NCBI RefSeq assembly: GCF_024502345.1
Contig: NZ_JALDNN010000001.1
Source: Escherichia coli
GTDB taxonomy: Bacteria > Pseudomonadota > Gammaproteobacteria > Enterobacterales > Enterobacteriaceae
Direction: 5' to 3' (one strand)
Length of the DNA stretch: 64,000 bases
The notes beneath the pieces were generated by a model, which had not been told where the DNA came from, ran no database searches, and saw nothing but the letters and a program-made list of their open reading frames with translations. The translations under genes and the position numbers were made by a program. Of this stretch, positions 1 through 45,790 are shown piece by piece (within the stretch, counting starts at the first letter, position 1; each line of letters opens with the position of its first letter).

Positions 1-932
<932 letters not shown>

Positions 933-1038
933 CTAATCAGATAGAACAGTCCCGGATAATATTCGGGACTCATACACTGACATACTGAGTTCTGAATTTA
1001 GTAGCAAGATTACTTATGATTATTTAAGGATAGTAACC

Positions 1039-2004
1039 ATGCCTTTAGATTTAAGTAACACCTTAGTTATTGGCATCAGCGCAACCGCGCTTTTCGACAT
1101 GAGTGAATCCGATCGCATGTTTCGCGAAACCTATGCGACCGATCCTGATAGCGCCATTGAAAAGTATCGCGCCTACATGCTGGAGCACGAAAACCAGCCT
1201 TTACAACCAGGAACAGGCTATCCCTTGGTCAAAGCGCTTTTGGGACTCAACCAGCACCGTCAACCCGATGATAAATCACCGCTGGTTGAAGTTGTCGTGA
1301 TGTCGCGTAACAGCCCTGATACCGGTATCCGTGTCCTAAATACCATTCGCCATGACAAACTCGATATTACACGTTCAGCCTTTACCGCAGGTGAAACTGT
1401 TGCCGATTACTTAGATGCTTTTGATGTGGATCTGTTTTTAACGACCAACGTTGAAGATGCGCAAAAGGTGATTGATTCCCGGTTCTGCGCCGCAGCAATC
1501 CTGAAAGATCCGCCTTCTGACGCATCTGATATCCCCGAAGGGCAAGTGCGCATTGCTTTTGACGGTGATGCAGTGCTTTTCTCTGATGAAAGTGAGTTAG
1601 TTTATAAAACTCAAGGGATGGCCGCTTTTCACGCCCAGGAGGATGCGCAGCAAGATATCCCGATGGCTGAGGGACCTTATGCCACTTTGCTAAAAAAAAT
1701 AGCCAAGCTTCAGGAGCGATTGCCAACACGAGTCGAGTATTCTCCCGTCCGTATTGCGCTGGTGACAGCCCGAAATAGCCCTTCGGAAATGCGCGTCATT
1801 AAAACGCTGAGAAGCTGGGGGGTATATGTCGATGAAGCTTTTTTTCTTGGCGGTGTAGAGAAAACAAAAGTTCTGAAGGCGTTTAAACCGCACATTTTCT
1901 TCGACGACCAGGATGTGCATTTGGTTGCTGCCGCAAAGGTTGTTCCTTCCGGTAAAGTACCTTATGCCAGTAATTCAGAGCTTTTTGAAAACGTAGCATC
2001 ATGA
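1039..2004 (+). CDS. Predicted HAD-like 5'-nucleotidase of the cytosolic cN-IA type (321 aa); islet cargo gene
   Basis: Translation contains an FDGDAVLF (DxDx[TV]) motif and overall resemblance to the bacterial 5'-nucleotidase family; family assignment is from memory, not a search. Confidence 0.6.
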   Translation: MPLDLSNTLVIGISATALFDMSESDRMFRETYATDPDSAIEKYRAYMLEHENQPLQPGTGYPLVKALLGLNQHRQPDDKSPLVEVVVMSRNSPDTGIRVLNTIRHDKLDITRSAFTAGETVADYLDAFDVDLFLTTNVEDAQKVIDSRFCAAAILKDPPSDASDIPEGQVRIAFDGDAVLFSDESELVYKTQGMAAFHAQEDAQQDIPMAEGPYATLLKKIAKLQERLPTRVEYSPVRIALVTARNSPSEMRVIKTLRSWGVYVDEAFFLGGVEKTKVLKAFKPHIFFDDQDVHLVAAAKVVPSGKVPYASNSELFENVAS

Positions 2005-2010
2005 AACTTT

Positions 2011-2049
2011 AAACAAATAGCCATCTTTACATCTAGATGGCTATTTGTT
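2011..2049. terminator. Hairpin with about 14-bp perfect stem between convergent genes; probable bidirectional terminator
   Basis: ACAAATAGCCATCT ... AGATGGCTATTTGT inverted repeat directly after the stop codons of the 321-aa gene and the integrase. Confidence 0.5.
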
Positions 2050-2052
2050 AAT

Positions 2053-3267
2053 TTATGCCGTCTTCCTAAATGCACCCTCTACCACACCCCCGCCTTTCCC
2101 CAGCTCACCAATGTAATCCGCATACCACTGCATCATTTGCCTACGCCCATCAAGATACTGCGCATGGTTATACGTGCCGCGAATCGCATTCTTATCGACA
2201 TGGGCAAGCTGCGTTTCAATCCACGCTGAGTTAAAGCCCTGCTCGTGCAGAATGGTACTCATCGTGTGGCGGAAACCATGTCCCGTCAGCCTGCCTTTAT
2301 ACCCTAATAACTCAATGACCTGATTGATGCTTTCCTTGCTGATCGGCTTGCGAGGATCATTCCTGCCGATAAAGACCAGCGCGTGATGTTTTGATATCGG
2401 CTCAAGTTGCTTGAACAGCGCAATAACCTGTTCTGAGAGCGGCACAATATGGGGCCGTTTCATCTTCATCACTTCTGCCGGGATCTCCCATAGTTTTGTC
2501 TCAAAATCGATATCCTCCCAGCGTGCGAAACGTAGTTCTTGCGTGCGTACACCGGTTAACATAATGATCTGAGTGGCGGTCTTCGTGATAACACTGCCGG
2601 TATAACCCGCCAGATCATTGAGAAAGTGAGGTAGTTCATTGGCAGTAAGGAAAGGAAAATGTACCTTTTTTGGCGTAGCTAAGGCGCTGGCAAGATCGGG
2701 GGCGGGGTTGTAATTCGCTCTGCCGGTAATAATTGCAAAACGGAATACTTCCCCGCAGCGCTGGCGAACTTTACGCATTTTCTCCAGCGCTCCGCGTTTC
2801 TCCATCTTACGTAGCGCTTCCAGTAGTTCCATTGGCTTAATATCAGCAATAGGGCGCTTACCGATGTAGGGGAAGATGTCCTTCTCAAAGGTGTCGATGA
2901 TTTCATCGCGGTAGCGCAATGACCAGCGATCGGCTTTAGTCTGATGCCACTCGCGAGCCACGGCTTCAAACGTGTTCTCTGCATTCAGTTTCTGCGCAAG
3001 TTTCTCGGATTTTTTAGTTTCTCCGGGGTCGCCACCTGCCGCCAGAATCTTCTTCGCCGCATCACGTTTTTCACGGGCGTCTGCCAGAGAAACATCGGGG
3101 TAGACGCCAAAAGCGAGACGCTTCTCTTTACCTGCAACGCGATATTTCATGCGCCAGTAGCGTGAGCCATTGGTTGCTACTTCAACGTACAACCCTCCTG
3201 CATCACCTAAGCGATACGTCTTTTCTCTGGGTTTTAACGCACGCACTTTTGCATCAGTTAATGGCAT
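2053..3267 (-). CDS. Tyrosine recombinase, P4-type integrase (404 aa), apparently intact
   Basis: N-terminal arm-binding region (MPLTDAKVRALKP...GLYVEV...YWRMKYR) and C-terminal catalytic residues (GHGFRHT ... RGTYNHAQY); lies next to the tRNA-Sec 3' end. Confidence 0.9.
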   Translation of the reverse strand: MPLTDAKVRALKPREKTYRLGDAGGLYVEVATNGSRYWRMKYRVAGKEKRLAFGVYPDVSLADAREKRDAAKKILAAGGDPGETKKSEKLAQKLNAENTFEAVAREWHQTKADRWSLRYRDEIIDTFEKDIFPYIGKRPIADIKPMELLEALRKMEKRGALEKMRKVRQRCGEVFRFAIITGRANYNPAPDLASALATPKKVHFPFLTANELPHFLNDLAGYTGSVITKTATQIIMLTGVRTQELRFARWEDIDFETKLWEIPAEVMKMKRPHIVPLSEQVIALFKQLEPISKHHALVFIGRNDPRKPISKESINQVIELLGYKGRLTGHGFRHTMSTILHEQGFNSAWIETQLAHVDKNAIRGTYNHAQYLDGRRQMMQWYADYIGELGKGGGVVEGAFRKTA

Positions 3268-3706
3268 CGTTGTTTCCTCCTGAAAGCAAGAATGCTTTGA
3301 CAGCCTGGGTTTGTTCGGGTGTCAGGGATAGGGTTTGTTTGGTTGTTTTGATGGTTAAGCCGTAATGCTCTGAGAGGGAAAGTTGAAAGGATTGTTTGGC
3401 CCGTTCCTGGCGACGTTGCTCTCTTTCGTGAGCCTTATCGATTGCAGGATCGTAGCCCTCTTTGATTTTTACTCTGGCTTTATCCCTTAGCACAATGGCT
3501 TCTTTAATCGTGACGTCCGGCCATGCTCCAAATGTGAGGCTTTTCTCCTTCCCCTCTATCCGGTACTTCATCCGCCAGCACTTTGACCCCGTTGGATTCA
3601 CCAACAAAAAGAGCCCTCTGCCGATAGAAAATTTGTAAGGTTTACTACGGGCATCAAGTGACTTTATTATTTGATTATTAATGATTTTTTGTTCTTTTGG
3701 TGGCAT
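3254..3706 (-). pseudogene. Integrase N-terminal fragment (150 codons, arm-binding domain only), stops 14 bp inside the start of the intact integrase
   Basis: Translation MPPKEQKIINNQIIKSLDARSKPYKFSIGRGLFLLVNPTGSKCWRMKYR... resembles P4-type integrase N-termini but lacks the catalytic domain. Confidence 0.6.
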
Positions 3707-3862
3707 GTCATTTTACCTCCAATGGTTGGTATGCCCAATTGTGCCCCCAAAGGCGTATTGATACCAGTAGACTCCGGTTGACCTCAGAATACAAGGAAGG
3801 CTTGATATATAAGGGATGAGAAGAGATTTTGTTGACGTCAGAAGAGTTCAGGAGAGGCTAAT

Positions 3863-3957
3863 TGGCGGAAGATCACAGGAGTCGAACCTGCCCGGGACCG
3901 CTGGCGGCCCCAACTGGATTTGAAGTCCAGCCGCCTCACCGGAGACGACGATCTTCC
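3863..3957 (-). tRNA. selC: tRNA-Sec (selenocysteine tRNA), 95 nt
   Basis: Reverse complement reads GGAAGATCGTCGTCTCCGGTGAGGCGGCTGGACTTCAAATCCAGTTGGGGCCGCCAGCGGTCCCGGGCAGGTTCGACTCCTGTGATCTTCCGCCA, the E. coli selC sequence. Confidence 0.95.
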
Positions 3958-4249
3958 GCGCCTCGATTGCTACATGGAGGCGGGGCGCATTATAGCTACT
4001 TCCTTGAGTTTCTACATCCCCCAGATCAGTTTTTTCCGCCTAATACACGCAGCGTATTATCACGAAAGCATTATAGTTCATATAAAACCCATATTTTACA
4101 ATGATATATGAGCGGAATTAACGCTACCACGATCACATAAAACAAGAATCATAAATTAATAACCAGATATCGGAATATTCGCTCTCACAGGGATGGTTTA
4201 CAAAATGCGTTATCGGTCTCAGCACCCCTATAGCATCAAGGAAAAGCAG

Positions 4250-5632
4250 ATGAAGAGTGAAGTGTTGTCCGTTAAAGAGAAAATTGGTTATGGCATGGGA
4301 GACGCCGCCAGCCACATTATTTTCGATAACGTAATGTTATATATGATGTTCTTTTATACCGATATTTTTGGCATTCCTGCCGGTTTTGTCGGAACCATGT
4401 TTTTGGTCGCTCGTGCACTGGATGCGATTTCCGATCCTTGCATGGGGTTGTTGGCCGATCGAACGCGCTCTCGCTGGGGTAAATTTCGTCCGTGGGTACT
4501 GTTTGGCGCACTGCCATTCGGGATCGTCTGTGTACTGGCCTATAGCACGCCAGATCTCAGTATGAACGGCAAAATGATCTATGCAGCAATTACTTACACC
4601 CTACTTACCTTACTTTATACCGTCGTCAATATCCCTTACTGCGCATTGGGTGGTGTAATCACCAATGACCCGACTCAGCGTATCTCGCTGCAATCCTGGC
4701 GTTTTGTGCTGGCGACCGCGGGAGGCATGCTTTCTACTGTTCTGATGATGCCACTGGTTAATTTAATTGGCGGTGATAATAAACCACTCGGTTTCCAGGG
4801 CGGTATCGCGGTCCTTTCCGTGGTGGCATTCATGATGCTGGCATTTTGTTTCTTCACCACTAAAGAACGCGTTGAAGCACCACCTACAACAACGTCTATG
4901 CGGGAAGATTTACGTGATATCTGGCAAAACGACCAGTGGCGGATTGTCGGTTTACTAACCATTTTCAATATCCTGGCGGTGTGCGTACGCGGTGGGGCGA
5001 TGATGTATTACGTCACATGGATTTTGGGTACGCCGGAAGTGTTTGTCGCTTTTCTCACCACTTATTGCGTGGGTAACCTGATTGGTTCCGCACTGGCAAA
5101 ACCGCTGACCGACTGGAAATGTAAAGTCACTATCTTCTGGTGGACGAACGCCCTGCTGGCAGTGATTAGCCTCGCAATGTTCTTTGTTCCCATGCAGGCC
5201 AGCATCACTATGTTTGTCTTCATCTTCGTGATTGGTGTGTTGCATCAACTGGTGACACCTATCCAGTGGGTAATGATGTCCGATACCGTCGATTACGGCG
5301 AGTGGTGCAATGGTAAACGCCTGACCGGGATCAGTTTTGCTGGCACGCTGTTTGTGCTCAAACTGGGGTTGGCCTTCGGCGGCGCTCTTATCGGCTGGAT
5401 GCTGGCTTATGGCGGATATGATGCGGCAGAAAAAGCTCAGAACAGCGCCACGATTAGCATCATTATCGCGCTATTCACGATTGTTCCGGCGATCTGTTAT
5501 TTGCTGAGCGCGATTATCGCTAAACGCTACTACTCACTCACGACGCACAATCTGAAAACCGTTATGGAACAGCTGGCTCAGGGCAAACGCCGTTGCCAGC
5601 AACAATTCACCTCTCAAGAAGTGCAGAACTAA
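4250..5632 (+). CDS. yicJ: GPH-family sugar:cation symporter (460 aa)
   Basis: Translation matches YicJ; start set at the MKSEVLSV methionine inside the longer ORF. Confidence 0.9.
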   Translation: MKSEVLSVKEKIGYGMGDAASHIIFDNVMLYMMFFYTDIFGIPAGFVGTMFLVARALDAISDPCMGLLADRTRSRWGKFRPWVLFGALPFGIVCVLAYSTPDLSMNGKMIYAAITYTLLTLLYTVVNIPYCALGGVITNDPTQRISLQSWRFVLATAGGMLSTVLMMPLVNLIGGDNKPLGFQGGIAVLSVVAFMMLAFCFFTTKERVEAPPTTTSMREDLRDIWQNDQWRIVGLLTIFNILAVCVRGGAMMYYVTWILGTPEVFVAFLTTYCVGNLIGSALAKPLTDWKCKVTIFWWTNALLAVISLAMFFVPMQASITMFVFIFVIGVLHQLVTPIQWVMMSDTVDYGEWCNGKRLTGISFAGTLFVLKLGLAFGGALIGWMLAYGGYDAAEKAQNSATISIIIALFTIVPAICYLLSAIIAKRYYSLTTHNLKTVMEQLAQGKRRCQQQFTSQEVQN

Positions 5633-44857: not shown

Positions 44858-45790
44858 TTATGCGTCGCGATTCAGCCAGGCCATGTATTCCGTTACACCT
44901 TCAGCAACGGTTTTGAACGGTTTGTCGTAACCCGCCGCGCGCAGATTTGTCAGATCTGCCTGAGTGAACGCCTGGTAGCGGCCTTTCAGCTTATCCGGGA
45001 ACGGAATGTATTCGATCTGGCCTTTCTTGTGATAAGCCAGCGTAGCATCAGCTACAGCCTGGAAGGATTCCGCACGACCGGTGCCGAGGTTGAAGATGCC
45101 GGAAACGCCATTTTCCAGGAACCACAGGTTTACATCTGCCACATCGCCAACATAGACGAAGTCGCGTTTAAAGTTCTCGCTACCTTCGAACAGCTTCGGT
45201 GATTCACCGTTATTAAGCTGGGTGTTGAGATGGAAAGCGACGCTCGCCATGCTGCCTTTATGGCCTTCACGCGGTCCATAAACGTTGAAATAGCGGAAGC
45301 CAACAATCTGCGAGTTCGCTTCCGGCAGGATTTGGCGAACATATTCATCAAACAGGAATTTTGAGTAACCGTAGACGTTCAACGGTTTTTCGTACTCGCG
45401 GGATTCAATAAAGTCGGAGGTGCGTCCGCCGTAGGTGGCTGCGGAAGAAGCGTACAGGAACGGGATTTCACGCTCCAGGCAGTAGTGCAGCAGCTCCTTG
45501 GAGTATTGATAGTTGTTATCCATCATATACTTGCCGTCCCACTCGGTGGTGGAAGAGCACGCGCCTTCGTGGAAAATCGCTTCGACATCGCCGAACTCTT
45601 CGCCAGCCATAATCTGGATCAGGAAGTCTTCCTTATCCATATAGTCTGCGATATTCAGATCCACCAGGTTCACAAACTTGGTGCCGTCTTTCAGGTTGTC
45701 CACCACCAGAATATCGGTGATGCCTTTATCATTCAGGGCTTTAACGATGTTGCTGCCGATAAAGCCCGCGCCGCCGGTAACGATGATCAT
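44858..45790 (-). CDS. hldD: ADP-L-glycero-D-manno-heptose 6-epimerase (310 aa)
   Basis: Translation matches HldD/RfaD ([11 protein letters not shown]). Confidence 0.95.

Follow-up and report, generated by a model that had tools for sequence, protein, structure and literature searches.

dCTP deaminase and dGTPase are single-gene anti-phage enzymes that deplete deoxynucleoside triphosphates (dNTPs). HAD phosphatases are the effectors of other validated nucleotide-depleting defences, as in PUA-Cal-HAD (10.64898/2026.01.15.699771) and CARF-HAD (PMC12715507), and human NT5C1A (cN-IA) is the reference member of a 5'-nucleotidase family, Pfam PF06189 (PMC5098729). Here we compare these enzymes with the product of a 5'-nucleotidase gene near the start of a 64,000-nucleotide stretch of Escherichia coli DNA (contig NZ_JALDNN010000001.1; hereafter the window). 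The gene (table) is intact, as an earlier annotation made from the letters of the window without database searches (the sequence-only reading) had stated; it starts with ATG and encodes 321 amino acids with no internal stop. Our leading explanation is that the protein is a stand-alone Mg2+-dependent phosphatase of (deoxy)nucleoside monophosphates ((d)NMPs) and a single-gene accessory defence, which would deprive phages of the dNMPs they need; we see the case for this proposal as evenly balanced.

The resemblance to PUA-Cal-HAD and CARF-HAD (Chp) lies in the HAD-fold phosphatase and in the nucleotide pool, which is the target in those systems. However, they are multi-domain or multi-protein systems with explicit sensors (PUA binds m6-dAMP and CARF binds cA4) and they attack (d)NTPs, whereas the nucleotidase is stand-alone, has no recognisable sensor beyond its dead N-lobe (see below), and belongs to a family whose chemistry is NMP hydrolysis. 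The HAD fold common to the nucleotidase and these depletion effectors is a superfamily-level likeness only. Profile searches revealed no homology to a validated depletion effector or sensor; the candidate family PDC-S08 was the sole PADLOC match at E <= 0.1, and no NCBIfam model matched. The fold and chemistry of dCTP deaminase and dGTPase are unrelated to those of the nucleotidase. They have in common with it the concept of one enzyme starving phage DNA synthesis, but act on dNTPs rather than dNMPs. Vertebrate NT5C1A falls into the same Pfam family over its whole length and has the same HAD catalytic motifs as the E. coli protein, which in contrast is bacterial, accessory, and island-borne. 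Vertebrate cN-IA is a tetramer with a preference for AMP and dNMPs and is activated by ADP, traits that the E. coli protein may or may not share.

Assignment of the protein to the cN-IA-like 5'-nucleotidases, which the sequence-only reading had based on a HAD-like motif (FDGDAVLF, residues 174-181), is borne out by profile and structure searches. Pfam PF06189 gave a single full-length match (400.6 bits, E 3.9e-120; query 1-312, model 1-300 of 302). In a family alignment of 64 sequences with 35-91% identity, D175, D177, V179, T243, K275, D289, and D290 are invariant or nearly so, with D175 and D177 of FDGDAVLF invariant throughout; all of these residues are in the C-lobe. The AlphaFold2 model is confident (pLDDT 94.1, pTM 0.92), contains the Rossmann-like HAD core fold, and has HAD phosphatases and nucleotidases as its structural neighbours. 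Since the Pfam match is full-length, the HAD motifs are invariant, and the model is confident, the class assignment is solid, and the protein is very probably a HAD-type, cN-IA-like 5'-nucleotidase. Its RefSeq product name (WP_045265438.1) is likewise "5'-nucleotidase". The substrates, judged from the family, are most likely (deoxy)nucleoside 5'-monophosphates, which would be converted to nucleosides and phosphate. Relatives are numerous: the AlphaFold database holds hundreds of two-lobed '5'-nucleotidase' models, and a search of 1.84 billion cluster representatives recovered 2,391 related clusters, of which 409 scored E <= 1e-30. A sequence search of the PDB with the nucleotidase returned no match at E <= 1, indicating that no PF06189 relative has a solved structure.

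The two halves of the protein are homologous to each other, both by BLASTP (E 9e-7) and by comparison of their profiles with hhalign (probability 99.3%, E 4.7e-20, 144 columns). The C-lobe has a complete set of motifs I-IV. In the hhalign alignment its D175 and D177 (motif I) are paired with S14 and T16 of the N-lobe, K275 (motif III) with V121, and D289 and D290 (motif IV) with T135 and T136; T243 (motif II) is paired with S89 and the conserved R252 with R98, and both of these positions are retained. Thus, every acidic and lysine catalytic residue has been lost from the N-lobe, yet it is conserved as highly as the C-lobe. The protein is therefore an internal tandem duplication, with an N-lobe predicted to be catalytically dead and a live C-lobe. 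Because the N-lobe is as conserved as the C-lobe despite the lost catalytic residues, it may be a non-catalytic ligand site for a regulatory nucleotide or phosphate effector. Mammalian cN-IA is activated by nucleotides, which makes an allosteric nucleotide site in this lobe attractive. The PF06189 model spans both lobes, so the dead-plus-live layout presumably applies to human cN-IA as well. We found no mention of a dead-lobe duplication in PF06189 in the literature consulted. The HAD 'DDDD' phosphatases (AphA class B, class C acid phosphatases, the T4 Pnkp phosphatase domain, MDP-1, and the mitochondrial/cytosolic deoxyribonucleotidases) are only 13-18% identical to the protein; they are single-lobed, and none has its tandem dead-plus-live layout.

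The sequence-only reading had proposed a nucleotide-depletion defence as one role for this enzyme, and this part of the proposal gains support from genomic context only. The protein matches the PADLOC model PDC-S08 with E 1.8e-134 and 445.7 bits over profile positions 15-317 (303 of 323). It also has the surroundings that this family calls for (in or adjacent to restriction-modification (R-M), BREX, or DISARM systems), since a type I R-M operon is located upstream and relatives lie within BREX or abut R-M genes. What the E. coli protein shares with PDC-S08 is thus the hidden Markov model match, the single gene, and the R-M/BREX adjacency. However, PDC-S08 is a bioinformatic candidate and not a characterised system, and in the window the link to R-M is broken by an IS5-family element. 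A nucleotidase described in an integron-cassette paper proved to be a NUDIX protein and is unrelated.

The nucleotidase is present in 65 of 5,426 complete E. coli genomes (1.2%), with 65 chromosomal and 2 plasmid copies. All ten of the E. coli loci that were inspected are located in a selC or leuX island, an integrative and conjugative element-like region, or a plasmid, and have type I R-M, Dsr1, a SIR2 protein (PDC-S25), or a phosphorothioate-dependent restriction endonuclease as neighbours. The leuX islands have a common frame that consists of a DEAD-box helicase, hsdM, hsdS, a variable slot, the nucleotidase, the phosphorothioate-dependent endonuclease, the integrase, and leuX; the slot is filled by Dsr1, SIR2 PDC-S25, PDC-M09A-like, or hypothetical proteins. 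Pairs of E. coli alleles differ at synonymous sites by a dS of 0.47-1.5 with a dN/dS of 0.026-0.037, and this combination of high dS and low dN/dS indicates that the gene was acquired several times independently and is under strong purifying selection. Beyond the species, proteins of 70-83% identity occur in Shewanella, Pseudoalteromonas, Pseudomonas, Desulfomicrobium, Sulfurimonas, and Alicyclobacillus. A scan of one genome for each of 100,044 species, which used a 15-sequence alignment, returned at least 575 matching stretches.

To characterise the surroundings of these relatives, we surveyed 80 species-representative loci with our own open reading frame (ORF) calling and all-versus-all clustering of neighbours. 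The search for an obligate partner gene among these loci found none; the top neighbour family, HsdM, occurs in only 12 of the 80, and the nucleotidase is therefore a single-gene unit. R-M genes lie within 10 kb in 18 of the 80 loci, a share that rises to 7 of 13 among those at >=75% identity. They are often co-oriented with the nucleotidase, and the distance to these and other adjacent genes is frequently no more than -1 to 27 bp. Gene orders include hsdR-hsdM-hsdS-5NT-ABC ATPase, SNF2-Mod-Res-5NT, 5NT-hsdM, and 5NT-Mod (where 5NT is the nucleotidase), which cover type I and type III systems in several phyla. In Desulfomicrobium the nucleotidase is located between type III-like R-M genes and GmrSD, and a relative with 62% identity is inside a BREX operon, between brxC and pglX. 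In Shewanella a variable slot adjoins the nucleotidase and is occupied, depending on the strain, by McrBC, Zorya, or ABC-ATPase systems. The defence panel against which neighbours were compared comprised 29 proteins, and both panel and ORF caller are crude. Because this panel is small and biased towards systems that had already been met, the fractions given here are lower bounds.

Several observations weigh against a role in defence. The PDC families come from a "guilt-by-embedding" screen, all 145 candidates of which are called untested (Payne et al. 2024, 10.1101/2024.01.29.577857), and the DefensePredictor preprint excludes PDC systems as unvalidated. The sole paper found to mention PDC-S08, a survey of Pseudomonas aeruginosa, reports it split 50/50 between phage-resistant and phage-susceptible strains (PMC10855318). 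The literature searched yielded neither a validation of PDC-S08 or PF06189 in phage defence nor an experimental characterisation of a bacterial PF06189 protein, and no enzyme of this family figures in a 2021 review of microbial 5'-nucleotidases. Two of the ten inspected E. coli copies are frameshifted, and the copy of the present strain has an IS5-family element 106 bp upstream and no recognised promoter. No match to the limited defence panel was obtained in 57 of the 80 species loci. In seven Campylobacterales species (Sulfurimonas and others; 65-70% identical) the gene has a conserved synteny unlike that of defence genes, with YaiI, a putative GIY-YIG protein, a putative two-component pair (response regulator and histidine kinase), and a putative PepN. 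YaiI was confirmed with a profile library, and the other names are our own reading of the sequences. This context looks like a stable chromosomal one outside of islands. The gene is also under very strong purifying selection and keeps 70% identity between phyla, a pattern more typical of a metabolic enzyme than of a fast-evolving immune gene.

These points are consistent with a metabolic or 'overflow' enzyme that takes no part in immunity, which would control the NMP pool or salvage phosphate and nucleosides and would be carried on the island as a passenger or fitness gene. The low dN/dS (~0.03), the 55-83% identity across many phyla, the loci with no recognised defence neighbour, the Campylobacterales context, and the plain RefSeq name all fit this explanation, and the eukaryotic cN-IA relatives are generally known as housekeeping regulators of nucleotide pools. 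Against it stand the presence of the gene in so few complete E. coli genomes, its location on islands or plasmids in all inspected loci, and its repeated acquisition. In distant phyla it also closely abuts type I and type III R-M operons in the same orientation and lies inside a BREX operon, and R-M genes are found within 10 kb in 22% of the species loci, compared with roughly 1% or less by chance (our own estimate, not a computed value). We consider a purely metabolic role to be unlikely.

The linkage to R-M could also reflect a function as an accessory of restriction. The nucleotidase would then act in 'house-cleaning', removing modified or non-canonical dNMPs (hydroxymethyl (hm)-dCMP, hm-dUMP, phosphorothioate, or methylated) that arise from restricted phage DNA. 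This would stop their re-incorporation into host DNA and self-targeting by type IV or other enzymes; alternatively, it would block the hypermodified phage dNTPs that evade R-M. The R-M linkage is operon-like in both gene orders, and modification-dependent nucleases recur nearby, including the phosphorothioate-DNA endonuclease in all E. coli leuX islands and McrBC and SRA-HNH elsewhere. GmrSD or DUF262/HEC-05 is directly downstream in Desulfomicrobium, Pseudomonas putida, and Stutzerimonas; on the P. putida plasmid and in Stutzerimonas, DUF262/HEC-05 and TerY-P follow the nucleotidase. YjjG provides a precedent for a house-cleaning HAD nucleotidase (as cited in PMC12715507). However, GmrSD-like genes are adjacent in only 3 independent loci, or 5 when neighbours at a distance of up to five genes are included, and no type IV enzyme accompanies the copy in the window or its relatives at selC. 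For the same reason GmrSD/DUF262 was rejected as a specific partner, being immediately adjacent in only the 3 independent loci. Overall, a dedicated house-cleaning role appears distinctly improbable.

SIR2 and other NAD-related neighbours in some loci, and a 5'-nucleotidase reported beside KomBC modules (10.1101/2024.12.20.629578), raise the question of whether the substrate is something other than canonical NMPs, either nucleic-acid ends, on which the protein would act as a Pnkp-like 3'-/5'-phosphatase, or another phosphomonoester such as nicotinamide mononucleotide. Since the sequence family is cN-IA, at 400 bits, we regard this as very unlikely.

Lytic phages break host DNA down to dNMPs and rebuild dNTPs, including modified ones, at the dNMP level, and the T-even phages, T5, and T7 draw on host-derived dNMPs for most of the DNA they make. 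The defence mechanism that we infer from this, with its substrate, its regulation, and any effect on phages, would run as follows. A soluble, Mg2+-dependent HAD phosphatase, with D175 as the nucleophile and D177 as the acid/base, would divert the dNMPs released from phage-degraded host DNA to deoxynucleosides and so act as a dNMP/NMP sink. E. coli is not known to possess a deoxynucleoside kinase besides thymidine kinase, and these products would therefore not be re-phosphorylated. Low basal dNMP, possibly together with an effector site in the N-lobe, would keep the enzyme harmless in uninfected cells. Phage T5 has a 5'-deoxyribonucleotidase of its own, which shows that such an activity can empty the dNMP pool. 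A more specific and speculative version, which we regard as unlikely, is that the nucleotidase is a sensor-less, substrate-gated effector whose point of attack precedes that of every known nucleotide-depletion defence by one step. It would be inactive as long as dNMPs are scarce, with the N-lobe possibly as an allosteric switch, and would be triggered by the flood of dNMPs from phage-degraded host DNA or by modified dNMPs (hm-dCMP, hm-dUMP); turning these into deoxynucleosides beyond the reach of salvage would back up R-M against phages that escape it.

The window edge cuts through the genomic island that carries the nucleotidase, and the sequence-only reading, which had described the gene as the only intact cargo of a satellite-type islet, reflects an artefact of this cut. 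The query region is 100% identical to an E. coli CFSAN051542 record, NZ_CP020835.1, in which the island spans ~27 kb; selC forms one border, and a 15-bp repeat of its 3' half, located beside setC, forms the other. The core AGATCACAGGAGTCG (3870-3884 in the window) recurs at position 44,997 of that record, where ~0.02 chance matches are expected, and this direct repeat marks the far border of the island. Its content includes rhuM, a CbtA/YeeU toxin-antitoxin pair, IS3, radC, DUF932, a YfjJ-family gene, and a TerY-P triad upstream of the type I R-M operon (hsdM, hsdS, an embedded DUF4268 gene, and hsdR). The IS5-family element, the nucleotidase, and the integrase follow, so that the nucleotidase is at the integrase-proximal end with the R-M operon directly upstream across the insertion. 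The neighbouring integrase has a P4-type domain architecture, in agreement with the sequence-only reading, and is located next to tRNA-Sec.

A P4-type integrase that adjoins the gene at a tRNA is also what would be expected if the nucleotidase were a phage- or satellite-derived modifier of nucleotide pools, left behind as cargo of a P4-like satellite; a phage-derived modifier was the second option of the sequence-only reading. One Pseudoalteromonas genome has a prophage on the other side of the integrase. However, the RefSeq annotation of the 27-kb island, on which this check was based, includes no P4-like satellite core gene (primase/helicase alpha, capsid-size, or helper-control) and no phage structural or replication gene. 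The family is also essentially absent from phages: no PHROGs family matches the nucleotidase, matches in 50,697 phage GenBank records are limited to 3 short fragments, those in the 2.9 million contigs of IMG/VR to 2 (both at contig ends), and no two-lobed homologue is present among predicted viral structures (BFVD). Since essentially nothing in these four collections matches, we reject a phage origin, which is barely credible for this gene.

The gene is thus one more member of a catalogued candidate family, with a plausible part in immunity, and not a new kind of system. The functional idea was already anticipated, as PADLOC flags the family and the gene is routinely annotated as a 5'-nucleotidase, so the practical value today is modest. 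Were the defence role true, this would be the first stand-alone nucleotidase acting at the NMP level shown to restrict phage, and it would offer a model of immunity through metabolic diversion that is very simple and needs no sensor; human cN-IA, which has no solved structure, would join the eukaryotic enzymes that have close relatives in bacterial immunity. This analysis corrects the locus to a 27-kb selC defence island in place of a one-gene islet, adds the architecture of a dead and a live lobe, and identifies a single-gene unit that is often co-oriented with, and a few bases from, R-M operons across phyla. It also adds the caution that part of the family is found in ordinary chromosomal contexts. 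The most useful new leads are the two-lobe architecture and the cross-phylum R-M linkage.

The nucleotidase gene is self-sufficient and horizontally mobile: it has a Shine-Dalgarno sequence (AAGGA, 8 nt 5' of the start) and a terminator of its own, and no obligate partner. The terminator is likely the hairpin between the convergent nucleotidase and integrase genes, which would be bidirectional; its folding energy is -21.8 kcal/mol (z -7.0) on the plus strand and -20.9 (z -7.2) on the minus strand, with 0 of 200 shuffles as good. The flanks of this hairpin are A/T-rich, and the consensus terminator scan missed it. A terminator-like match of that scan at 1550-1571 is a false positive, as it is inside the coding sequence and spans motif I. 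The hairpin in the upstream region has a folding energy of -16.1 kcal/mol (z -2.6). A promoter scan upstream of the gene found no clear sigma-70 promoter on the plus strand, and an Rfam scan of positions 1-4300 gave tRNA-Sec as its sole match, indicating that there is no riboswitch or leader 5' of the nucleotidase.

Coordinates of the nucleotidase gene, its parts and its neighbours in the window
Feature	Position	Strand	Evidence
IS5-family (ISKpn26-like) insertion sequence, 3' part, cut by window start	1..932	+	NCBIfam transpos_IS5_4, E 1.2e-86; RefSeq
Transposase ORF remnant of the IS5-family element	33..785
Terminal inverted repeat of the IS5-family element	917..932		CTTATTCGCACCTTCC
Native upstream region, 106 bp, left after insertion	933..1038	+	CTAA target site 933-936, hairpin ~949-969, AAGGA 1026-1030
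cN-IA-family 5'-nucleotidase gene (RefSeq WP_045265438.1; PADLOC PDC-S08 member)	1039..2004	+	ORF, PF06189, PDC-S08, AlphaFold2, dN/dS
N-lobe, residues 1-159, degenerate copy of HAD module, predicted non-catalytic	1039..1515	+	BLASTP, hhalign, conservation
C-lobe, residues 160-321, predicted catalytic HAD module	1516..2001	+	Motifs I-IV complete
HAD motif I, FDGDAV	1558..1575	+	D175, D177
HAD motif II	1765..1767	+	T243
HAD motif III	1861..1863	+	K275
HAD motif IV	1903..1908	+	D289-D290
Perfect 15-bp-stem hairpin between convergent nucleotidase and integrase genes	2012..2049	.	Folding energy
Intact P4-type tyrosine integrase, 404 aa, selC island	2053..3267	-	Arm-DNA-bind_3 + Phage_int_M + Phage_integrase; NCBIfam PRK09692, E 4.8e-91; RefSeq
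150-aa ORF, Arm DNA-binding domain only	3254..3706	-	PRK09692 profile positions 5-119 only, E 2.1e-10; RefSeq 'Arm DNA-binding domain-containing protein'
tRNA-Sec (selC), island integration site	3863..3957	-	ARAGORN; Rfam tRNA-Sec, 83.8 bits

The insertion sequence is labelled 'IS5-like element ISKpn26 family transposase' in RefSeq and ends in CTTATTCGCACCTTCC, which we take to be the IS5 terminal repeat. It was inserted at the CTAA site and separates the nucleotidase from the type I R-M operon, which is outside of the window. The alignment of the upstream region with the uninterrupted locus of E. coli EC291 begins at this CTAA, with 92-95% identity. Compared with EC291, the insertion replaces a gene for a hypothetical protein of 580 amino acids that is located there between hsdR and the nucleotidase. 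Over positions 936-2060 the two alleles are 92-95% identical from the upstream region to ~nt 1175 and ~75-80% identical thereafter, a mosaic that suggests a recombination breakpoint inside the nucleotidase gene. An ORF of 73 amino acids (767-988, plus strand; RefSeq hypothetical BCD20_RS26730) crosses the right end of the insertion sequence into the flank and is probably not a real gene.

Some further features were observed in the loci of relatives. The whole leuX frame, together with its chromosomal flanks, was found once on a record labelled as a plasmid (pMTY18781-2). In five Shewanella loci, three dynamin-like/MMR_HSR1 GTPase genes and small ORFs are directly downstream of the nucleotidase and conserved, with varying cargo upstream; this GTPase cluster may be another defence module. 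In three loci an RtcR-like CARF-AAA-HTH regulator gene precedes a type I R-M operon that runs into the nucleotidase and an NsnB/AriA-like ABC ATPase gene, and these loci are possibly co-regulated multi-defence operons. In the window, the ORF with only an Arm domain is between the intact integrase and selC, overlaps the start of the integrase gene by 14 bp, does not resemble the integrase N-terminus, and is absent in strain S43. This ORF is what is left of another, different integrase and looks like the trace of an older or rival island that used this tRNA site.

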